Shown: positions 3,064 through 16,294, numbered from the stretch's first letter. The stretch is 64,000 bases of DNA from Escherichia coli (GCF_044324785.1 NZ_CP172127.1), one strand, 5' to 3'. The notes: a model not told the origin generated them from the sequence alone. Translations and numbers: made by a program.

Positions 3064-3726
3064 ATGGCTTATCGCGACCAACCTTTAGGTGAACTGGCGC
3101 TCTCTATTCCTCGCGCTTCGGCTCTGTTTCGTAAATATGATATGGATTACTGCTGCGGCGGTAAGCAGACGCTGGCGCGCGCGGCGGCACGTAAGGAGCT
3201 GGATGTTGACGTCATTGAAGCCGAACTGGCAAAGCTTGCTGAACAACCGATTGAGAAAGACTGGCGTAGCGCCCCGCTGGCTGAAATCATCGACCATATC
3301 ATCGTGCGCTACCACGATCGCCACCGCGAGCAGCTGCCGGAGCTGATCCTGCAAGCGACTAAAGTCGAGCGCGTTCACGCCGACAAACCGAGCGTGCCAA
3401 AAGGGCTGACAAAATACCTGACTATGCTGCATGAAGAGCTTTCCAGCCACATGATGAAAGAAGAGCAGATCCTCTTCCCGATGATCAAACAAGGCATGGG
3501 TAGCCAGGCGATGGGGCCAATCAGCGTAATGGAAAGCGAGCACGATGAAGCGGGCGAACTGCTGGAAGTGATCAAACACACTACCAATAACGTCACACCG
3601 CCGCCAGAAGCCTGCACCACCTGGAAAGCGATGTATAACGGCATTAATGAACTGATTGATGACCTGATGGATCACATCAGTCTGGAAAACAATGTGCTGT
3701 TCCCACGCGCGCTGGCGGGTGAGTGA
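3064..3726 (+). CDS. ytfE: Iron-sulfur cluster repair di-iron protein (RIC)
   Basis: 220-aa ORF with hemerythrin-like His/Glu motifs; matches YtfE. Confidence 0.9.
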
Positions 3727-6329: not shown

Positions 6330-6968
6330 ATGCCCGGGCGCTTTGAACTAAAACCAACCCTGGAGAAAGTCTGGCACGCGCCGGACAATTTTCGCTTCAT
6401 GGACCCGCTGCCGCCGATGCATCGTCGGGGGATCATTATTGCCGCCATTGTATTGGTGGTCGGATTTCTGCTTCCATCTGATGATACGCCCAACGCGCCG
6501 GTGGTGACGCGTGAAGCGCAGTTAGATATTCAGTCGCAATCACAACCGCCGACAGAAGAACAGCTGCGGGCGCAATTAGTCACCCCACAAAATGATCCTG
6601 ATCAGGTGGCTCCGGTCGCTCCAGAACCTATACAGGAAGGCCAGCCAGAAGAGCAGCCGCAAACCACCCAAACGCAACCATTCCAGCCAGATAGCGGAAT
6701 TGATAATCAATGGCGCTCTTACCGTGTCGAACCCGGTAAAACGATGGCGCAGCTGTTCCGCGACCACGGACTGCCCGCTACCGATGTCTATGCAATGGCG
6801 CAGGTAGAAGGCGCGGGTAAGCCGCTGAGTAATTTGCAAAACGGGCAGATGGTGAAAATCCGCCAGAACGCCAGCGGCGTGGTGACGGGCTTAACCATTG
6901 ATACGGGGAATAATCAACAGGTCCTGTTTACCCGCCAGCCGGATGGCAGTTTTATTCGTGCGCGGTAG
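6330..6968 (+). CDS. ytfB: OapA/LysM-domain cell-division-associated protein
   Basis: ORF 6294..6968; 212-aa product from ATG 6330 ([10 protein letters not shown]...); Pro/Gln-rich linker, TM segment. Confidence 0.85.
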
Positions 6969-7623
6969 ATGAAGGATCAACCAAAAGCCAGCTAAGGAGC
7001 GTCTCTTTGATGACCTTACGTCTGGCTTCCAGTGCCTGGGGGGAAACCATACTGATATGATAAACTAGGCCAAGCGTATGCTGGTTGATCAAATAATATC
7101 CCCCAAGCGCAGCAATATTAATATTCACCTGCAATGGGTCGATATCTGGCTTAAAAATATTGTGTTTCTTCCCTTCATCCAATAAGGATTCCATTAACTG
7201 CAAGTGCGCATGGTTAATTTCTAAGAGACGCTGTGATTTTGCATAATGCACACCTTTACTTTGATTTTCACTATGCACAATTTTTAAAAACCAGGGGTTA
7301 GCAATATAATAATCCCATGTAAAATCAATAATTTTCTCAATGGCTTTTTGTGGCGGAAGATCTGAGAAATCAAGGGCCTTTTCTTTTTGTCGAATATCGT
7401 TCCAGGTATATTCCAGTACTTCAATAAATAAATTTTCTTTATTACCAAAGTGATGATAAACCGTCTGTTTACTACACCCCGCAGCCTTAACAATATTATC
7501 GACCCTGGCCCCTTCATAACCATATTCGGCAAATTCATTAACCGCGCATAACAGCAGCTTTTCCTTCAGGCTCTGTACGTTGCTGGTATCAAGATACATA
7601 ACGCTTCCCCACGACCTCTTCAA
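6952..7623 (-). CDS. TetR/AcrR-family transcriptional regulator (full-length; K-12 carries only a remnant, ytfA, as far as I recall)
   Basis: 223-aa ORF with N-terminal TetR helix-turn-helix (...[18 protein letters not shown]...); AT-rich; 3' end overlaps ytfB 3' end by 17 bp; divergent from the downstream operon. Confidence 0.75.
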
Positions 7624-7809
7624 GACAACTATCTTAACCCGATTAATTAGAAGCTCCAGTAAAAAGGATAAAAACTTGTACTTTCATCAAGTTATCAAAT
7701 GTCCTGTGATCACTATCGCATATCAACCAACCAGATGGTTGATCTTTCTTGCGGCACGTCGCAAGCTAATTGTCACTTAGAAACAATATTCAAAAAAGAG
7801 AGCTATTGT

Positions 7810-8601
7810 ATGAAATCCACTCGTCCTGTTGCCGTGATTACCGGAGCCGCTCGTGGTATTGGAAAGGGCTGTGCGCTGGAGCTTGCTCGTGGCGGATTTA
7901 ACCTGCTGATTAACGATCGCCCCGATGATGACAGCGTAGAAAAATTACATGCCACGCAACAGGAATGTCTGGCAGAAGGTGTGGAAGTGATTTGCTTCCC
8001 TGCCGATGTCGGCGATCTCTCCTTGCATGAAGAGATGCTCGACGCGGCACAAAACCAGTGGGGACGTCTGGACTGCCTGCTCAACAACGCAGGCATTTCA
8101 GTGAAAAAACGCGGTGACCTTCTCGACCTCGAACCAGACAGCTTCGACCAAAATATTGCCATTAACACCCGCGCACCGTTCTTCCTCGCTCAGGCATTCA
8201 GTAAGCGCTTACTGGCACAGCCGAAACCGGAAGCAGAACTGCCGCACCGCTCGATTATTTTTGTCAGTTCCATCAACGCCATCATGCTGGCGATGAATCG
8301 CGGCGAATATACCATTGCCAAAACTGCCGTCTCTGCCGCTGCTCGTCTGTTTGCTGCTCGGCTTTGTAATGAACAAATTGGCGTTTATGAAGTGCGTCCT
8401 GGTCTCATCAAAACCGATATGACTATTCCGGCAACGGCCTATTACGACGAACTGATTGCCAAAGGTCTGGTGCCGTGGGGACGTTGGGGTTATCCGGCTG
8501 ATATTGCTTCCACTGTCCGCGCGATGGCGGAAGGTAAACTGATTTACACCTGTGGTCAGGCGGTTGCCATTGACGGCGGCTTAAGTATGCCGCGTTTCTG
8601 A
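7810..8601 (+). CDS. Short-chain dehydrogenase/reductase (SDR)
   Basis: ORF 7699..8601; start at ATG 7810 with upstream aagagag SD; TGAARGIGKG Rossmann motif, NNAG, YxxxK (YTIAK) catalytic motif. Confidence 0.8.
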   Translation: MKSTRPVAVITGAARGIGKGCALELARGGFNLLINDRPDDDSVEKLHATQQECLAEGVEVICFPADVGDLSLHEEMLDAAQNQWGRLDCLLNNAGISVKKRGDLLDLEPDSFDQNIAINTRAPFFLAQAFSKRLLAQPKPEAELPHRSIIFVSSINAIMLAMNRGEYTIAKTAVSAAARLFAARLCNEQIGVYEVRPGLIKTDMTIPATAYYDELIAKGLVPWGRWGYPADIASTVRAMAEGKLIYTCGQAVAIDGGLSMPRF

Positions 8602-8610
8602 GGCTGAATC

Positions 8611-9453
8611 ATGAGAGATCTGTTACAACGCCCGGATTTATTCAGTATCAATACCGCGACACTGGGCTATAAAACGCCGCTTCCCGCCATTATTGATGCC
8701 TGCGCCGCACGCGGTATTGGCGCAATTGCCCCCTGGCGCAGGGAGTTGCAGGGTGAAGATCTCCAGCAAATCGCCCGCCAGCTTGCCGCCAGTAAGATGA
8801 ACGTTTCCGGTTTGTGCCGTAGCACTTACTACACCGCGCCGACACTGGCGGAACGCAAACTGGCGATTGATGATAACCGCCGGGCGCTGGACGACGCAGC
8901 GGTGCTTAACGCCGCCTGTTATATGCAGGTGGTTGGCGGGTTACCGCAGGGAACAAAAGATTTGTACGAAGCGCGGGAACAAGTAAAACAAGGGATTCGC
9001 CAGTTGCTGCCACATTCGAAAGATGTCGGCGTGCCAATTGCGCTGGAGCCGCTGCACCCGATGACTGCTGCCGACCGCTCTTGCCTGTGCACGTTACGTC
9101 AGGCGCTGGACTGGTGTGATGAACTCGATCCCGATGGTGAGTTTGGCCTCGGCGTAGCGGTAGATGTCTACCATGTCTGGTGGGACCCGGATCTCGCCAG
9201 CCAACTCCAGCGCGCCGGAAAACGCATCCTCGCGTTTCATGTTTCCGACTGGTTAGTACCAACCACCGATCTGGTCAATGACCGTGGAATGCCGGGAGAT
9301 GGCGTCATCAATATTCCGTCAATTCGTCGGCTGGTTGAAAACGCCGGATTTAATGGCGCTATTGAACTGGAAATATTCTCGCCGTACTGGTGGCAAAAAG
9401 ATATTAACAGCACGCTGGATATTAGCGTCGATCGCATCGCGCATTATTGCTAA
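8611..9453 (+). CDS. Xylose-isomerase-like TIM-barrel protein (sugar-phosphate isomerase/epimerase family)
   Basis: 280-aa ORF 10 nt downstream of the SDR gene; family assignment by sequence resemblance, not verified. Confidence 0.65.
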   Translation: MRDLLQRPDLFSINTATLGYKTPLPAIIDACAARGIGAIAPWRRELQGEDLQQIARQLAASKMNVSGLCRSTYYTAPTLAERKLAIDDNRRALDDAAVLNAACYMQVVGGLPQGTKDLYEAREQVKQGIRQLLPHSKDVGVPIALEPLHPMTAADRSCLCTLRQALDWCDELDPDGEFGLGVAVDVYHVWWDPDLASQLQRAGKRILAFHVSDWLVPTTDLVNDRGMPGDGVINIPSIRRLVENAGFNGAIELEIFSPYWWQKDINSTLDISVDRIAHYC

Positions 9454-10248: not shown

Positions 10249-11790
10249 ATGCGTAAGATAACAACCGCCGAGGCACTGGCGGCGCAAATTCAGGACGGCG
10301 CAACCATTGCCATTAGCGGTAACGGCGGCGGCATGGTGGAAGCTGACCATATTATGGCCGCCATTGAAGCGCGTTTCCTGCAAACCGGACACCCTCGCGA
10401 TCTGACATTGATCCACTCGCTGGGTATTGGCGATCGCGACAGCAAAGGCACTAACCGTTTTGCTCACGCCGAAATGCTCAAACGCATTATTGCCGGACAT
10501 TTTACCTGGTCGCCCAAGATGCAGGAACTGGTGAAAAGCAATGCTATTGAAGCCTACTGTTTCCCTGGTGGCGTGATTCAGGCGTTGCTACGGGAGATCG
10601 GTGCCGGACGTCCGGGGCTTTTTACCCACGTTGGGCTGGGATCGTTTGTTGATCCACGCAATGGCGGCGGTAAGTCGAATGAATGCACTACCGACGACCT
10701 GGTAGAACTGATTGAAATCGACGGTGAGACCAAACTTCGTTATCGCCCTTTCAAAGTGGATTACGCGATTTTGCGTGGCACTTATGCCGATCCACGAGGC
10801 AACGTTAGCCTCGAAGAAGAAGCGATTGATATGGATAGCTATTCGATGGCGCTGGCAGCACACAACAGCGGTGGCAAAGTGTTCGTACAGGTACGCGATG
10901 TGCTGGAAGCAGGTGCCATTGAACCACGCCGGGTTAAATTACCGGGGATTCTGGTTGATGGCATCGTTGAACACCGCGAACAGCCACAAACCTATCTTGG
11001 CAGTTACGACCTGACCATCAGCGGCCAACATCGCCGTCTGAGTTCTAACGACGCTATTGAGCTGGTTAGTCATCCGGTGCGTCGCCTGATTGCCCGTCGG
11101 GCAGCGCGGGAACTGGTGGCAGGCGCTTCAACCAACTTTGGCTTTGGTATTCCCGGCGGCATTCCAGGAGTAGCGCTGCGCGAAGGCGTGCCTTACCAAA
11201 GTTTATGGCTGAGCGTCGAGCAAGGCGTGCATAACGGTATGATGCTGGATGATGCGTTTTTCGGCTGCGCCCGCAACGCCGATGCCATTATTCCATCACT
11301 CGATCAATTTGAGTTCTACAGTGGTGGAGGGATCGATATCACCTTCCTCGGCATGGGAGAGATGGATCAGTACGGTAACGTCAACGTATCCCATCTCAAT
11401 GGCAATCTGATTGGCCCCGGCGGATTTCTCGAAATTGCGCAAAATGCCCGTAAAGTGGTGTTCTGCGGCACGTTCGACGCTAAAGGCAGCAAAATCGATA
11501 TAACGCCAGATGGCTTGCATATCGCCCAGTCAGGTCAAATCCCTAAACTGGTTACCCAGGTGGAAAAAATCACTTTTAGCGCCGCCTACGCACAGCAAAG
11601 TGGTCAGGAAGTGTTGTATATCACTGAGCGCGCAGTATTCCAGTTAACGGCAGAAGGCGTTGAATTAATTGAAATCGCGCCGGGTGTAGAGATTGAGCGC
11701 GACATTCTGCCGTTCATGGCTTTCCGTCCAATTATCAAGCACCCACGCCTGATGGAAAGTAGCCTGTTTACGCCGATGGAGGATGCATGA
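10249..11790 (+). CDS. Family-I CoA-transferase (acyl-CoA:acetate/3-ketoacid type, fused subunits)
   Basis: 513-aa ORF; resembles YdiF-like fused alpha/beta CoA-transferases; SD aagga upstream; translationally coupled to flanking genes. Confidence 0.7.
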   Translation: MRKITTAEALAAQIQDGATIAISGNGGGMVEADHIMAAIEARFLQTGHPRDLTLIHSLGIGDRDSKGTNRFAHAEMLKRIIAGHFTWSPKMQELVKSNAIEAYCFPGGVIQALLREIGAGRPGLFTHVGLGSFVDPRNGGGKSNECTTDDLVELIEIDGETKLRYRPFKVDYAILRGTYADPRGNVSLEEEAIDMDSYSMALAAHNSGGKVFVQVRDVLEAGAIEPRRVKLPGILVDGIVEHREQPQTYLGSYDLTISGQHRRLSSNDAIELVSHPVRRLIARRAARELVAGASTNFGFGIPGGIPGVALREGVPYQSLWLSVEQGVHNGMMLDDAFFGCARNADAIIPSLDQFEFYSGGGIDITFLGMGEMDQYGNVNVSHLNGNLIGPGGFLEIAQNARKVVFCGTFDAKGSKIDITPDGLHIAQSGQIPKLVTQVEKITFSAAYAQQSGQEVLYITERAVFQLTAEGVELIEIAPGVEIERDILPFMAFRPIIKHPRLMESSLFTPMEDA

Positions 11791-13859
11791 GTCAGCTTGA
11801 TGACACCATCCTTGATGCGCTGACGCACGTCACTTTCCCAAAGGGGTTTGTGTCAGCAGAGCCAACGTCAATTGTCACCGTTGAGGATGTTGATTACCCG
11901 ATCTGGCAAGTTGATGCGCTGGTCGTTGGTAGCGGCGCAGCAGGATTACGTGCGGCAGTTGAACTTAAACGCCGCCAGCAAAATGTGCTGATCGCCACCG
12001 CCGGGTTATATATGGGGACGTCGGCATGTTCTGGTTCCGATAAACAGACGTTGTTTACCGCCGCTACCGCGGGCAACGGCGACAACTTCGCCAAACTGGC
12101 AGAGGCACTTGCGAGCGGTGGGGCGATGGATCACGACACCGCTTATGTCGAAGCGGTAGGTTCTCTGCACACTCTTGGCGGGTTGCAATATCTTGGTCTG
12201 GAATTACCGGAAGATCGCTATGGCGCGATTCTTCGTTATCAAACCGACCATGACGAAGCCGGGCGTGCAACCTCGTGTGGGCCGCGTACCTCAAGGTTAA
12301 TGGTGAAAGTGCTGCTGGAAGAAGTACAGCGTCTTGCTATCCCAATGTTGACCAGTGCAACAGTGATTAAACTGCTGCATCAGCGTGACGAAAACGGCGA
12401 AGACCGCGTGGCGGGGGCTATCCTCGCGACCGGTCATCGCGCCCATAACCCATGGGGGCTGGCAATTGTGATTGCGCCCAATGTGGTACTGGCAACAGGA
12501 GGGCCTGGCGAGCTTTATCGCGACAGTGTGTACCCACACAAATGTTTCGGCTCGCTGGGTCTGGCGCTGGAGGAAGGTCTGACGCTAACGAATCTGACTG
12601 AAAGCCAGTTTGGTATAGGCACACCGCGCAGCACGTTTCCGTGGAATTTGTCCGGGACTTATGTACAGGTGATCCCATATATCTATTCCGTGGATGCTGA
12701 GGGTAACGAGTATAACTTCCTCGCGGATTACTATCGCACCACCCAGGAGCTGGCTTCAAACATTTTCCGTAAAGGCTATCAGTGGCCGTTCCACGCCACT
12801 CGGGTGATGGATTTTGGCTCCAGCTTGTTAGATATGGCAGTAGCGCAAGAGCAGCAATCAGGGCGTCAGGTATTTATGGATTTCAATCGCAATCCTGAAG
12901 CGGTGCCGGGTGACCTGCCCTTCTCATTAGATCGACTGGACGACGACGTTCGCGCGTATCTGGAAAATAACGACGCTCTGGCACCATCGCCCATCGAACG
13001 GCTGCAACGAATGAATCCGCTGTCTATCTCGCTGTATAAGATGCACGGTTACGATCTCACCACACAGCCATTGCAGTTTGCCATGAATAATCAGCATATG
13101 AATGGCGGCATTGAAGTCGATATCTGGGGACAAACATCTCTACCCGGTTGTTTTGCAGTGGGGGAAGTTGCTGGCACACACGGCGTCACCCGACCTGGCG
13201 GCGCGGCATTGAATGCCGGGCAGGTTTTTGCTGTTCGTCTGGCACGTTTTATTGGTTGCACGCAAAAGCGGAATATTGATGGAGATATAGCACAGCTGGC
13301 AGCTCCGGCACTGGCTTCTATAAGAGAGATCATTACTCAGGCGCACGATAACGGGACCGGGATGCCGTTGTCGGTTGTGAGAGAAAAAATTCAGGCACGA
13401 ATGTCTGACCATGCGGGATTTATTTGTCATGCCGATAAAGTCCGACGCGCCACTCGTGATGCCCTGCTATTGAACGAATTTGTCCAACGGCATGGATTGG
13501 CAATCAAACATGTGGGTGAAGTTTCCGAGCTGTTTATGTGGCGGCATATGGCGCTGACTTCTGCCGCGGTATTAACACAATTAACGCATTATATTGATGC
13601 TGGTGGCGGCAGTCGTGGGGCGCGGATGGTTATTGATCCACAAGGCAAATGCCTACCACAAACTCGTCGCGGCGTAAAAGAAGAATGGCGTTTTCGCTCT
13701 GAACTCGCTGAAGATAAAAATCACAAATTAACAATTCAATATTCGCAAGGTTCTTTTATTACCGAAGTAAAGTCTTTACGTATGCAACCGTGTATTAACG
13801 GTATTTACTTTGAAAAAAACTGGCCAGACTTTTTAAAGGGAGACATTTACACACAATAA
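11787..13859 (+). CDS. FAD-binding oxidoreductase, fumarate reductase/succinate dehydrogenase flavoprotein superfamily
   Basis: 690-aa ORF overlapping the CoA-transferase stop (ATGA); VVGSGAAGLRAA dinucleotide fold at residue ~46 and C-terminal GEVAGTHGVTRPGGAALN motif typical of FrdA/SdhA/NadB. Confidence 0.75.
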   Translation: MSQLDDTILDALTHVTFPKGFVSAEPTSIVTVEDVDYPIWQVDALVVGSGAAGLRAAVELKRRQQNVLIATAGLYMGTSACSGSDKQTLFTAATAGNGDNFAKLAEALASGGAMDHDTAYVEAVGSLHTLGGLQYLGLELPEDRYGAILRYQTDHDEAGRATSCGPRTSRLMVKVLLEEVQRLAIPMLTSATVIKLLHQRDENGEDRVAGAILATGHRAHNPWGLAIVIAPNVVLATGGPGELYRDSVYPHKCFGSLGLALEEGLTLTNLTESQFGIGTPRSTFPWNLSGTYVQVIPYIYSVDAEGNEYNFLADYYRTTQELASNIFRKGYQWPFHATRVMDFGSSLLDMAVAQEQQSGRQVFMDFNRNPEAVPGDLPFSLDRLDDDVRAYLENNDALAPSPIERLQRMNPLSISLYKMHGYDLTTQPLQFAMNNQHMNGGIEVDIWGQTSLPGCFAVGEVAGTHGVTRPGGAALNAGQVFAVRLARFIGCTQKRNIDGDIAQLAAPALASIREIITQAHDNGTGMPLSVVREKIQARMSDHAGFICHADKVRRATRDALLLNEFVQRHGLAIKHVGEVSELFMWRHMALTSAAVLTQLTHYIDAGGGSRGARMVIDPQGKCLPQTRRGVKEEWRFRSELAEDKNHKLTIQYSQGSFITEVKSLRMQPCINGIYFEKNWPDFLKGDIYTQ

Positions 13860-13951
13860 TTTTCAATATTTCCTCTGTACCTGATTTTTATTGCCTATTA
13901 CATGGAAATACCAACAACCAGGGTTTATTAATATAATTAAAAGGTTTAAAA

Positions 13952-15229
13952 ATGAATAAAATAAAGAATTATCGATGGCATATGATTGCCCTCGTATGCT
14001 TTATCACTGTAATCAATTATCTGGACAGAACGGCGTTAGGTATTGCGGCTCCAACGATTATGGAGACAACCGGAATAACTAAAGAGCAATATTCATGGAT
14101 TGTCAGTGCATTCCAGTTGGCCTATACATTAGGGCAACCGGTAATGGGCTTCTTTATTGATACCGTGGGTCTGAAGTTAAGTTTTGCGATATGTGCCGCA
14201 ATTTGGGGCCTGGCGACAATGGGCCATGCACTAACCGGAACGTGGTCTGGTCTGGCATTTATGCGCGCCCTGATGGGTTTCAGCGAAGCGTCGGCAATTC
14301 CGGCGGGTGTAAAAACCGCATCAACATGGTTCCCGGCAAAAGAGCGTGGCGTGGCGACAGGTGTTTTCAATATGGGCACCTCACTCGGCGCGATGCTTGC
14401 TCCACCGTTGATTGCCTGGTGCATTATGTTTCATAGCTGGCAATTTGCGTTTATTGTTTCAGGTAGCCTTGCTTTGCTCGCGGCTTTATTTTGGTTCTTT
14501 TGTTATAAAGATCCGAAAGATGCCAAACGCCTTTCTGATGAAGAGCGCCACTATATTGAATCAGGGCAAGAACAGCATCTTAAAACAGATAAGAAAGAAA
14601 AAACGTCAATCAAGCATATCCTCAGCCAACGTAATTTCTGGGGGATTGGCATCGCGCGTTTTCTCGCAGACCCGGCATGGGGAACCATTAACTTCTGGGT
14701 GCCGATTTTCTTCGTCGAAACGCTGCATTTTAGCCTGAAAGAAATTGCCATGTTCGTCTGGCTGCCTTTCCTGCTGGGCGATCTCGGCTGTTTAGCCAGT
14801 GGTTTTGTCGCGAAGTTCTTCCACGATCGCGGCGTGAGTTTAATTAACTCACGAAGAATTACCTTCACTATTGCAGCCGTCATTATGATGACGATTGGCC
14901 TGGTGAGTATTGTCGAAAATCCCTACATTGCCGTATTACTGATTAGTATTGGCGCGTTCTCGCATCAATGTCTTTCTACTGTAGCAGCAACTCTGGGTGG
15001 CGATCTGTTCAAAAAAGACGAAGTAGCTACCGCAGTGGGTATGGCAGGAGCCTGTGCGTGGAGCGGTCAGTTGATTTTCAACCTGTTCATCGGGGCATTC
15101 GTTCACATTATCGGCTTCGCGCCGTTCTTTATTGCCCTGGCTTTCTTTGACATTATTGGTGCTATTGCGTTGTGGACGCTTATCAAAGTTAAAGATGAAG
15201 AACCGCAAGTACAGCTAGCTACCCATTAA
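13952..15229 (+). CDS. MFS transporter
   Basis: 425-aa ORF with ~12 predicted hydrophobic helices; AT-rich codon usage. Confidence 0.75.
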   Translation: MNKIKNYRWHMIALVCFITVINYLDRTALGIAAPTIMETTGITKEQYSWIVSAFQLAYTLGQPVMGFFIDTVGLKLSFAICAAIWGLATMGHALTGTWSGLAFMRALMGFSEASAIPAGVKTASTWFPAKERGVATGVFNMGTSLGAMLAPPLIAWCIMFHSWQFAFIVSGSLALLAALFWFFCYKDPKDAKRLSDEERHYIESGQEQHLKTDKKEKTSIKHILSQRNFWGIGIARFLADPAWGTINFWVPIFFVETLHFSLKEIAMFVWLPFLLGDLGCLASGFVAKFFHDRGVSLINSRRITFTIAAVIMMTIGLVSIVENPYIAVLLISIGAFSHQCLSTVAATLGGDLFKKDEVATAVGMAGACAWSGQLIFNLFIGAFVHIIGFAPFFIALAFFDIIGAIALWTLIKVKDEEPQVQLATH

Positions 15230-15240
15230 TTATTTTAAAT

Positions 15241-15273
15241 AAAAACGCTATAATTGAGGTTATGGCGTTTTTA
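15241..15273 (+). terminator. Predicted rho-independent terminator after the MFS gene
   Basis: Hairpin acgctataa...ttatggcgt followed by a T-run. Confidence 0.5.
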
Positions 15274-15499
15274 AAGAAGCTTGAGTTATCGAACCTCGCT
15301 TACCAACGCGTTGTCAATCATATCCCCCCTCCCTGCTGCATCGTTATATCCACAATGAGCGATTTTTGATATTAATATCTTTCACCATCCGCTATTTTCA
15401 CTACTTCAGAAAACAAACTTATTTTTATTAATATCGATTCTTTATTCTGTAAACATTCAGCTGAGATATTTATAAAAACATTAAACAGGCAACGATACA

Positions 15500-16294
15500 A
15501 TGACATTACCAACCACTATTTATTCATTTCCTGCATATTCACCCCGTTTTTCGTCCACCGACAAACCAGTAAAATTAAAATTTCATCAATACGCACGCGC
15601 TACATTACTTTCAAATCGTGGAAGAGATCATAATTGCGATGGCAGACATACTGTTGAGATCCACAAACTAGATCTCTCAGACTGGCAAGCATTCAATAAA
15701 CTAGCGATGGCGTGTAATGCTTACGATGGAATAACAATGAATGGTGATAATTCTTTTGGATGGAACCATGAAGCTACATTAGATAATATTCACGCCCAGA
15801 AATACAATAAAGCTTACGCGGGTGCGAGGTTAACCGCAGAACTGAAATATTTATTGCAAGATGTCGAATCCTTCGAACCCAACAGTAAATACACAATACA
15901 CGAGGTTGTTTTGGGTCCAGGTTATGGTACTCCAGACTATACCGGCCAAACGATAGGATACGTTGTAACCCTTCCTGCCCAAATGCCTAATTGCTGGTCA
16001 TCTGAACTACCAACAATCGATCTTTATATCGACCAACTTCGCACTGTTACAGGCGTTTCTAATGCCCTCGGATTCATCATTGCTGCATTGCTAAACGCGT
16101 ATTCTGATTTACCCCATGATTTGAAAATTGGTCTGCGTTCCTTATCAAGTTCAGCAGCAATCTACTCGGGTTTGGGTTTCGAGCGAGTGCCGCAGGGCCG
16201 AGACATAAGGTGCGATCATATGCATCTAACGCCAGCAAACCATCCTGAATTATGGACACAAGAGAATGGTGAATGGATCTACTTGCGAAACTAA
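15500..16294 (+). CDS. yjfZ: DUF2686-family protein of unknown function
   Basis: 264-aa ORF; length and position next to rplI match K-12 yjfZ; AT-rich upstream region. Confidence 0.7.
   Translation: MTLPTTIYSFPAYSPRFSSTDKPVKLKFHQYARATLLSNRGRDHNCDGRHTVEIHKLDLSDWQAFNKLAMACNAYDGITMNGDNSFGWNHEATLDNIHAQKYNKAYAGARLTAELKYLLQDVESFEPNSKYTIHEVVLGPGYGTPDYTGQTIGYVVTLPAQMPNCWSSELPTIDLYIDQLRTVTGVSNALGFIIAALLNAYSDLPHDLKIGLRSLSSSAAIYSGLGFERVPQGRDIRCDHMHLTPANHPELWTQENGEWIYLRN

Follow-up and report, generated by a model that had tools for sequence, protein, structure and literature searches.

A stand-alone FrdA-like flavoprotein with a rebuilt active site in a seven-gene operon of Escherichia coli

Here we describe a flavoprotein of 690 amino acids (aa) encoded in a stretch of 64,000 nucleotides (nt) from Escherichia coli (GCF_044324785.1 NZ_CP172127.1), hereafter called the window. 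Comparisons of its sequence and predicted structure indicate that it represents an unnamed subfamily of the FrdA/NadB superfamily, with an active site and a genomic context of its own. The gene belongs to a seven-gene operon with a divergent TetR/AcrR-family regulator (Table 1), and the context in which its relatives are found points to sugar or sugar-acid catabolism. We propose, with a probability of about 0.5, that the protein is a cytoplasmic flavin dehydrogenase acting on an imported uronate-like sugar acid, at a site next to its carboxylate, in an operon controlled by the TetR regulator. A substrate in the form of an acyl-coenzyme A (acyl-CoA) thioester, suggested by the original prediction made from the sequence alone, is the less likely reading.

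FAD_binding_2 (PF00890; residues 43-475, E-value 1.5e-27) was the sole Pfam domain found in the flavoprotein. The motif that binds the flavin adenine dinucleotide (FAD), VVGSGAAGLRAA, occupies residues 46-57, with its GxGxxG element reading VVGSGAAG from residue 46, as compared with residues 10-21 in FrdA, and the resulting shift of ~36 residues is close to the ~40 originally predicted. An alignment-based AlphaFold (AF2) model was obtained with high scores (predicted local distance difference test, pLDDT, 92.7; predicted template-modelling score, pTM, 0.94). The top Foldseek match of this model was E. coli FrdA (5vpn_A; E 1e-31, TM 0.67/0.79, 17% identity), followed by SdhA, NadB and AprA, and the 660-690 columns aligned to FrdA and SdhA correspond to essentially the full length of the protein. 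In the hhalign alignment, the match extends as far as residue 623, facing residue 543 of FrdA. The assignment to the FrdA/SdhA superfamily thus stands, but the long C-terminal region attributed to the protein does not: there is no extra domain at this end, the C-terminal part is ordinary for the fold, and the additional length relative to FrdA lies mostly in ~40 N-terminal residues, confidently modelled as beta strands, and in insertions of the capping domain.

At the sequence level, the protein is remote from every characterized enzyme with which it was compared. Profile searches against solved structures placed NadB, SdhA and FrdA at equal distances (E 1e-27 to 1e-30; best match 1chu, a NadB, E 1e-30), and the Foldseek identities to enzymes of these types were 15-19%. 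All NCBIfam models scored far below their cutoffs. The best of them was TfrA, with 124 bits against a cutoff of 718, while the FrdA/SdhA models reached 80 bits against 567 (sdhA_frdA_Gneg) and 43 against 854 (PRK09231), and the NadB models reached 98.6 bits against 452.75 (TIGR00551) and 107.7 against 639 (PRK07804). No orthology to FrdA, SdhA or NadB was therefore detected.

The catalytic residues of FrdA were mapped onto the flavoprotein by two independent alignments, hhalign and MAFFT, which agreed with each other, and were followed through 60 sequences of the family. FrdA H232 corresponds to G276, R287 to S345/S346 and H355 to Q436, whose next residue, H437, is invariant; each of these replacements is the same in 60/60 sequences. 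R390, the carboxylate-binding arginine of FrdA, corresponds to R469 and is kept in all 60. The histidine that binds FAD covalently in FrdA (His44) aligns with G77 (hhalign) or A80 (MAFFT), and no histidine occurs in residues 72-88, the segment matching it, where the family consensus is GTSRNTGSDKQTYYK. Because this segment has no histidine, FAD should be bound non-covalently. FrdA T244 and E245 could not be reliably aligned. Counting the flavinylation histidine, four of five mapped residues have then been replaced, and without it three of the four catalytic ones, with R469 as the sole survivor. Of the catalytic Arg and His residues named in the original prediction, only the equivalent of R390 was retained, and the histidine for covalent FAD was absent.

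Since only R469 is left of the catalytic set, the residue map indicates that the protein is not a fumarate reductase, a succinate dehydrogenase or an L-aspartate oxidase. The chance that it is a redundant paralogue of fumarate reductase or L-aspartate oxidase is negligible, and this explanation is effectively refuted: a shared fold, with NadB, SdhA and FrdA as the best sequence matches, speaks for it, but the NCBIfam equivalogs are far under cutoff, identity is low, the replacements are invariant, and the neighbouring genes of the operon have no link to respiration or NAD synthesis.

The family has invariant polar motifs of its own, GSDKQT, TD.D, FLKGYQWP, GSS..D, QH.NGG and R.GG. In the alignment of 60 sequences, which are 33-79% identical, the invariant columns include S79, S84-D85, T153-D154, G165-P166, Q274-x-G276, S289-G290, K329-G330-x-x-W333-P334, S345-S346, Q436-H437-x-N439 and R469, and all the listed motifs are present in the window protein. 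Beyond the conserved arginine, the pocket appears new and very polar, and the protein contains no iron-sulfur (Fe-S), heme or NAD(P)H domain.

The window protein has in common with FrdA and SdhA the overall fold, the N-terminal GxGxxG, a C-terminal GE..G.HG..R.GG flavin/substrate motif with its conserved arginine and an SRG motif. It differs from them in its identity (17-19%), in the missing covalent-FAD histidine and the Gly/Ser/Gln found in place of H232/R287/H355, in the ~40-residue N-terminal extension, in having no partners of the FrdB/C/D type, and in its location in a cytoplasmic catabolic operon. Another point of comparison is NadB, a stand-alone soluble member of the superfamily that has non-covalent FAD, oxidises a carboxylate substrate and needs no Fe-S partner. 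Nevertheless, NadB retains the FrdA-type His/Arg catalytic set, which the window protein does not, no nadA or nadC lies near the window gene, and the NadB models gave 99-108 bits against cutoffs of 450-640.

The genuine frdA/B/C/D genes, already pointed out in the original prediction, are at 59950-63258, 46 kb from the flavoprotein gene, and every subunit scores above its NCBIfam cutoff. In the flavoprotein operon, by contrast with such a respiratory complex, no Fe-S, cytochrome or membrane-anchor gene was found by ORF (open reading frame) reading, NCBIfam or RefSeq annotation, and the clusters of neighbours that recur in 74 related loci include no Fe-S subunit or anchor gene. The N-terminus, as read from the sequence, has no signal peptide, Tat motif or hydrophobic/transmembrane segment, and the protein is therefore taken to be soluble and cytoplasmic. 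Both results agree with what had been predicted about the missing FrdB-like partner and the solubility of the protein.

The same reading frame is named 'FAD-dependent oxidoreductase' by RefSeq in E. coli N3, the closest complete genome to the window (97.8% identity across 9.4 kb). The gene was found in 3,122-3,136 of 5,426 complete E. coli genomes (~58%) and is missing from the remaining ~42%. Comparison of the E. coli, Klebsiella and Salmonella orthologues gave a ratio of nonsynonymous to synonymous substitution rates (dN/dS) of 0.04-0.05, which indicates strong purifying selection. Given this ratio and its presence in 3,122/5,426 genomes, the gene is functional.

Relatives of the flavoprotein are numerous and widespread. 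An exhaustive HMMER search returned 3,214 representatives at E<=1e-3, and a threshold of E<=1e-30 left at least 420 (50%-identity clusters). They are mostly 600-700 aa long and 35-57% identical, and the family extends from Proteobacteria to Planctomycetota and Firmicutes. Their names in UniProt, NCBI and AFDB50 are generic ('FAD-binding protein', 'oxidoreductase') or mis-transferred ('succinate dehydrogenase flavoprotein'). NCBIfam searches and profile and sequence searches of the PDB found no model and no solved structure that covers the family. Literature searches by gene and product names, PDB codes, sugar-acid plus CoA and uronate topics found nothing on the operon or the family; one paper on ytfA, the K-12 pseudogene related to the operon's regulator, gives only the distribution of this regulator.

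The genomic neighbourhoods were sampled with one genome per species, which yielded 593 relatives, and the best 80 loci were analysed, 74 of them with a complete flavoprotein ORF. In these loci, ORFs were called, the neighbours were clustered, recurrent clusters were named by NCBIfam and Pfam, and neighbours within 5 kb of the flavoprotein gene were counted. Taken as lower bounds, many contigs being short, the counts were 43/74 for a short-chain dehydrogenase/reductase (SDR) or a Gfo/Idh/MocA (GFO) dehydrogenase, 27/74 for an SDR of the same BLAST cluster as that of E. coli, 25/74 for a KdgK-like kinase or Eda-like aldolase, 20/74 for a glucose-methanol-choline (GMC) oxidoreductase and 14/74 for an old yellow enzyme (OYE). 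A CoA-transferase or crotonase of the E. coli types was found in only 5/74 loci, and a TetR gene alongside the flavoprotein in 7/74. The usual partner of the family is an SDR of the PRK12745 type; in a Firmicute locus, the SDR partner matches the same NF009386 equivalog as the E. coli SDR, with 320 bits. A TIM-barrel protein like that of the operon accompanies the flavoprotein in nine loci from five phyla or classes.

The nearest relatives outside Escherichia, Klebsiella and Salmonella lack the CoA genes. Brenneria has the order TetR-SDR-TIM-flavoprotein-MFS (MFS, major facilitator superfamily transporter) with no CoA genes, and its flavoprotein, SDR and TIM barrel are 59%, 75% and 70% identical to those of E. 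coli. Pseudescherichia, Mangrovibacter and Phytobacter have TetR-SDR-GFO-TIM-MFS-flavoprotein, again with no CoA genes, and GFO, TIM, SDR and flavoprotein genes are found together in one Lentisphaeria, one Opitutia and one betaproteobacterial genome. Because these relatives are without CoA genes, the crotonase/CoA-transferase pair looks like a late insertion into an older SDR-TIM-flavoprotein module.

This history bears directly on the possibility that the flavoprotein works at the acyl-CoA level, which we regard as doubtful. In such a pathway the CoA-transferase would activate an acid, the crotonase would hydrate or dehydrate the thioester, the flavoprotein would be an enoyl-CoA reductase or acyl-CoA dehydrogenase (cf. 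CaiA, Bcd) and the SDR a 3-hydroxyacyl-CoA dehydrogenase, the four together making a complete beta-oxidation-like turn. Both catalytic Glu motifs of the crotonase (GGGIE, NPEV) are readable. The junction between the CoA-transferase and flavoprotein genes reads ...GGAGGATGCATGAGT...; as originally predicted, the flavoprotein start codon (ATG, 11787) and the stop codon of the 513-aa CoA-transferase ORF (TGA, 11788-11790) overlap, and a GGAGGA Shine-Dalgarno sequence lies directly 5' of the ATG. The ATGA overlap is kept in all three genera, E. coli, Klebsiella and Salmonella. Two unrelated loci have also paired the flavoprotein independently with CoA enzymes: in Desulfobacterales (L061) it is surrounded by an enoyl-CoA hydratase, two SDRs, two MaoC hydratases, a CoA-transferase and two acyl-CoA dehydrogenases, and in a Planctomycete (L072) an enoyl-CoA hydratase, a family-III CoA-transferase, the flavoprotein and an Eda-like aldolase occur together. 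The step from translational coupling to an acyl-CoA or enoate enzyme is only partly supported, though, when the family is considered, as the CoA neighbour is specific to Enterobacteriaceae and the nearest relatives combine SDR, TIM barrel and flavoprotein without CoA genes. An acyl-CoA pathway would assign no role to the TIM barrel, and it would make no sense of the ancestral three-gene module. Moreover, the family-invariant residues, including the carboxylate-binding arginine, are the same with or without CoA neighbours.

In some E. coli assemblies, the CoA-transferase and the flavoprotein appear as a single fused ORF (proteins P0006, 1078 aa, and P0029, 1043 aa); either a sequencing error or a single-nucleotide change within the ATGA would account for such a fusion.

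The closest counterpart to an acyl-CoA scheme in E. coli is the cai operon, which encodes CaiB, a family-III CoA-transferase, CaiD, a crotonase, and CaiA, a flavin reductase of the acyl-CoA-dehydrogenase fold. The window operon resembles it in joining an importer, a CoA-transferase, a crotonase and a flavoprotein, and it could likewise serve as an anaerobic electron sink. It differs in the FrdA fold of its flavoprotein, in its family-I, YdiF-type transferase, and in its SDR and TIM barrel, which have no cai counterpart. The acyl-CoA pathway for deoxyribonate of Klebsiella michiganensis, with a CoA-synthetase, hydroxyacyl-CoA dehydrogenase, thiolase and glycerate kinase, is a different locus (PMC6365646).

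At least 13 otherwise conserved positions divide the flavoprotein family cleanly into two subfamilies, for example N81C, Y89L, G150R, S279T, R285P, R547C and S612A, and two arginines are among the differing positions. Subfamily A comprises the E. coli clade, Brenneria, Pseudescherichia, Rhizobiales, Rhodobacterales, Lentisphaeria and Opitutia, with GFO, GMC, TIM and KdgK proteins as partners; in the 74 loci, no OYE gene occurs within 5 kb of any of its members. Subfamily B comprises Firmicutes, Phycisphaerae, Desulfobacterales and others, with OYE, SDR, KdgK and Eda as partners. The signature residues that place the E. coli enzyme in subfamily A are common to its CoA-less relatives and do not depend on the CoA genes, which speaks against a substrate that is specifically a CoA thioester.

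In some subfamily B loci of Firmicute and metagenome origin, the genes are tightly packed or overlapping, in the orders OYE-SDR-flavoprotein-TRAP (TRAP, tripartite ATP-independent periplasmic transporter) and TIM-OYE-flavoprotein-SDR-GFO. A natural fusion of an OYE (Oxidored_FMN) to the flavoprotein, 1,084 aa long (P0150, L092 7001-10255) and flanked by TIM-barrel and SDR genes, constitutes a Rosetta-stone link that ties OYE to the flavoprotein in this subfamily. Such arrangements would be expected of an NAD(P)H-linked enoate reductase that receives electrons from an OYE-type flavoprotein, and many carriers are strict anaerobes, in which an electron sink makes sense. For the E. coli enzyme, whose electrons would have to come from a trans-encoded OYE (e.g. 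NemA) or from free reduced flavin, we consider this function unlikely: the OYE-linked members (the 14 loci with an adjacent gene, and the fusion) all belong to subfamily B, from which subfamily A is separated by the positions listed above, and the genes of subfamily A stand beside NAD-dependent and GMC sugar-oxidising enzymes in aerobes.

OYE-like and FAD_binding_2 domains are combined in soluble NADH-dependent reductases of fumarate, acrylate and cinnamate, reportedly described in work by Bertsova and Bogachev; among them are a cytoplasmic fumarate reductase of Klebsiella and the acrylate and cinnamate reductases of Vibrio. In soluble NADH enoate reductases, an FMN_bind domain with covalent flavin mononucleotide (FMN) lies between the two modules. 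Subfamily B is similar to them in its pairing of an OYE-type flavoprotein with an FrdA-like domain. Nevertheless, FMN_bind is missing from the OYE::flavoprotein fusion, FMN_bind and Oxidored_FMN are absent from the window protein (Pfam) and from its operon (NCBIfam, annotation), and the E. coli subfamily has no OYE partner. By analogy with these enzymes, subfamily B is probably reductive, with OYE as the NAD(P)H-oxidising module. For subfamily A the oxidative direction is favoured, because it has no OYE partner and its neighbours are sugar-oxidising enzymes in aerobes.

Among the loci of subfamily B, six from Phycisphaerae (L060 7411-8925 and five others) have a gene for a beta-propeller of ~508 aa (BNR_4, Pfam E 1e-17) directly upstream of the flavoprotein, in the order OYE-GltD, SDR, Eda-like, BNR_4, flavoprotein, with a KdgK-like kinase in some. 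Neither these BNR_4 neighbours nor the unannotated neighbours of ~526/527 aa and ~763/770 aa in loci L088 and L092 gave a clue to the substrate, and the pair in L088 had no NCBIfam match.

Importers encoded next to the flavoprotein bear on the class of its substrate, and every classifiable importer beside family members was of an organic-acid or sugar type. In E. coli, two alleles occupy the same position. The first, as in the window, carries the MFS gene and yjfZ at its 3' end and was found in ~1,647 genomes; in the second, present in ~1,450 genomes, a TRAP DctQ/M/P cassette takes the place of MFS and yjfZ (window 13620-16294 compared with L087 8250-11360 and L004 11103-13946). The flavoproteins of the two alleles differ in the last ~240 nt of the gene and are 93% identical at the protein level. 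Megablast coverage of the flavoprotein gene ends at 1833/2073 nt in many genomes, which are taken to carry the TRAP-type allele. The MFS transporter of the window is the probable importer of an organic-acid substrate.

Among solved structures, the TRAP-allele binding protein (WP_000695886.1) most resembles 4ovr, which we take to be a uronate binder, and 4x8r and 4n8y (E 1e-67 to 1e-71). Of the latter two, 4x8r holds glucuronate and 4n8y galacturonate (PMC11668362). Its identity to these uronate binders was estimated from bit scores at ~40%. A locus from Bacillota contains a sensor kinase, an AraC-type response regulator, a TRAP transporter of the same uronate clade, the flavoprotein and nothing else, and this composition suggests that the flavoprotein works on the imported acid or close to it.

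The alphaproteobacterial clusters provide a second line of evidence. Their ATP-binding cassette (ABC) binding protein is very similar to 4r2b and 5dvf and related to 2b3b; we take the first two to be glucose binders and the third to be the Thermus glucose-binding protein. The same clusters encode two cytoplasmic GMC oxidoreductases, a GFO protein similar to levoglucosan dehydrogenase, the flavoprotein and a KdgK-like kinase. From these contexts we infer that the substrate of subfamily A may be a hexuronate-like acid, which Enterobacteriaceae would import directly and alphaproteobacteria would make from a hexose with their GMC enzymes, and that its product may be heading to a 2-keto-3-deoxy acid similar to 2-keto-3-deoxygluconate (KDG). 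A conserved protein of 102 aa is encoded between the GMC and GFO/flavoprotein genes in L019 (5619-5927), L021 (13043-13366) and seven other alphaproteobacterial loci; by eye it resembles a stress-responsive alpha/beta barrel of the Dabb type, and it had no NCBIfam match.

The frequency of KdgK-like and Eda-like neighbours has another possible explanation, a non-redox, flavin-assisted dehydratase or isomerase that leads towards a 2-keto-3-deoxy sugar acid and stands in for the usual sugar-acid dehydratase or a KduI-type isomerase. The annotated recurrent neighbour clusters include neither KduI nor a conventional sugar-acid dehydratase, and the arginine that donates the proton in fumarate reduction has been replaced. 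We consider such an activity very unlikely, since the flavin-binding motifs are fully conserved, as a redox role would need, and the constant association with OYE or NAD(P)-dependent dehydrogenases points to redox chemistry. To our knowledge, a flavin-assisted enzyme of this non-redox kind has no precedent in the superfamily.

Considered together with the operon genes, these data lead us to the following model for a flavin dehydrogenase of sugar acids. An organic acid, at best guess a hexuronate-like sugar acid, would be imported by the MFS transporter, or by the TRAP transporter in the alternative allele. The NAD(P)-dependent SDR would oxidise a hydroxyl, and the TIM barrel, where present, would isomerise the product. 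The flavoprotein would then take two electrons from the carbons adjoining the carboxylate, with R469 holding the carboxylate. Formally, this chemistry may be an alpha,beta-dehydrogenation or a conversion of CH-OH to C=O via an enediol; dehydrogenation is favoured, as in NadB or KstD. As with NadB, a relative that also stands alone, the acceptor of the electrons might be a quinone, fumarate or O2. The CoA-transferase and crotonase, added later in Enterobacteriaceae, would most likely activate and hydrate, or cleave, a different and probably downstream intermediate. Finally, the divergent TetR protein would control the operon through a conserved palindrome. Substrate class, reaction direction, electron acceptor and the step of the CoA enzymes are what we infer in this model; the fold, the replaced residues, the layout of the operon, its conserved neighbours, its distribution among genomes and the purifying selection are what the data show.

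The likeness to KstD is an analogy only. KstD, the 3-ketosteroid delta-1-dehydrogenase, belongs to the FAD_binding_2 family, and its substrate is a sterol, not a carboxylate. The two cases have in common that an SDR makes a ketone and a stand-alone flavoprotein with non-covalent FAD then acts on the neighbouring carbons. KstD was not among the listed sequence or fold matches of the window protein.

We tentatively extend the model to the whole family: the flavoprotein and the PRK12745-type SDR might be the core of an unrecognised, widespread catabolic route of the uronate type, in which the flavin step replaces an isomerase or dehydratase en route to a KDG-like intermediate, with CoA-thioester chemistry added in Enterobacteriaceae.

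Several points weigh against the proposal of a flavin dehydrogenase for uronate-like acids. The uronate assignment derives from transporter similarity, at an estimated identity of ~40%. Additionally, E. coli already degrades glucuronate and galacturonate via exuT/uxa/uxu, and the ligand of the operon should therefore be another one, probably a different uronate or a keto-aldonate. Transporters at other loci of the family suggest a wider range of acids, as they include a SiaP-like TRAP binding protein, a succinate/KDG-type TRAP binding protein, MFS transporters of the aromatic-acid type and an ABC system of the LivK type. The operon contains no gene for an electron acceptor or donor. The OYE partners of subfamily B and the OYE::flavoprotein fusion suggest a reductive direction, and the conserved ATGA junction and the CoA-rich loci of Desulfobacterales and Planctomycetes favour a role at the CoA level.

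The operon lies between ytfB and yjfZ-rplI, and the same order of seven genes is found at the same chromosomal site in Klebsiella (K. oxytoca) and Salmonella. Its features are given in Table 1.

Table 1. Genes and candidate operator of the operon in the window, with the evidence for each assignment.
Feature	Position	Strand	Remarks
TetR/AcrR-family regulator, divergent	6952..7599	-	TetR/AcrR annotation in E. coli N3; intact form of the K-12 pseudogene ytfA
Candidate TetR operator, perfect palindrome ATCAACCAaccagaTGGTTGAT (8+8)	7722..7743	.	~67 nt upstream of the SDR start codon
SDR, 263 aa, first gene of the operon	7810..8601	+	NCBIfam equivalog NF009386 (PRK12745), 420 bits against a cutoff of 250
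Xylose-isomerase-like TIM barrel, 280 aa ('sugar phosphate isomerase/epimerase')	8611..9453	+	Pfam AP_endonuc_2 in orthologues
Crotonase-family enoyl-CoA hydratase, 258 aa	9463..10239	+	NCBIfam enoyl-CoA hydratase models, E 1e-44; Enterobacteriaceae-specific addition
Fused family-I CoA-transferase, 513 aa, YdiF/FadX-like	10249..11790	+	PDB 2ahu (E. coli YdiF), E 5e-115
FrdA-like flavoprotein, 690 aa	11787..13859	+	ATG start; stand-alone FrdA/SdhA/NadB fold, subfamily without assigned function
MFS transporter, 425 aa, anion:cation symporter (D-galactonate) family	13952..15229	+	TIGR00893, 315 bits against a cutoff of 395

The Klebsiella and Salmonella orthologues of the regulator contain the Pfam domains TetR_N and TetR_C_29. 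The palindrome ATCAACCAaccagaTGGTTGAT was the sole inverted repeat detected in the TetR-SDR intergenic region; it is kept in both E. coli alleles, in K. oxytoca and in Salmonella while its flanks diverge, and Pseudescherichia has related ATCAAC...GTTGAT palindromes. It is therefore a plausible predicted operator to which the regulator would bind. A terminator scan also marked positions 7722-7743, presumably merely as a hairpin.

The TGxxxGxG and YxxxK motifs of the SDR can be read in its sequence. The start of this gene is the ATG at 7810 according to RefSeq, to the orthologues and to the NCBIfam match, which begins at residue 38 of a longer mechanical ORF; this ORF starts at 7699 (300 aa), and its upstream 37 codons overlap the promoter/operator region. 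For the TIM barrel, NCBIfam gave weak matches to the keto-sugar-acid isomerases and epimerases IolO, Hyi, OtnI and FrlC, and the nearest solved structures were the unannotated structural-genomics entries 3qc0 and 3ju2 (E ~7e-85). It was also considered as a 3-dehydroshikimate or inosose dehydratase, for which no match was found apart from weak ones of the IolI/IolO type, and a quinate or cyclitol substrate would be speculation that is not supported. The CoA-transferase scored 385 bits with the NCBIfam model FadX, under the cutoff of 750.

The surroundings of the MFS gene are variable. In Klebsiella and Salmonella, a gene of the EamA/DMT family (L084 12468-13394; L085 12444-13379) lies between the operon's MFS gene and rplI, where E. 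coli has yjfZ (DUF2686). Positions 14001-16000 of the window, covering most of the MFS gene and yjfZ, have a low GC content of 0.44.

At this chromosomal site, E. coli K-12 has only the 402-bp pseudogene ytfA (L086 3195-3596), which is a truncated remnant of the TetR gene of the operon; the genes from SDR to MFS, between ytfB and yjfZ, are deleted. A seven-gene, probably TetR-controlled operon without an assigned substrate is thus present in over half of the complete E. coli genomes, and the standard model strain, which keeps only the pseudogene, cannot reveal its function. The operon also supplies its own probes for the ligand, namely the TetR regulator and the TRAP-allele binding protein.

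The subfamily described here keeps the FrdA fold and the carboxylate-binding arginine, with the remaining catalytic apparatus replaced, and its reaction, once identified, would be new chemistry for a textbook enzyme family. The same identification would probably account for a dietary or host-derived nutrient niche that separates strains of gut Enterobacteriaceae. If the widespread uronate-type route suggested above is real, ~58% of E. coli, the K. oxytoca group and some Salmonella would possess a new sugar-acid pathway, which has stayed hidden because K-12 deleted it.

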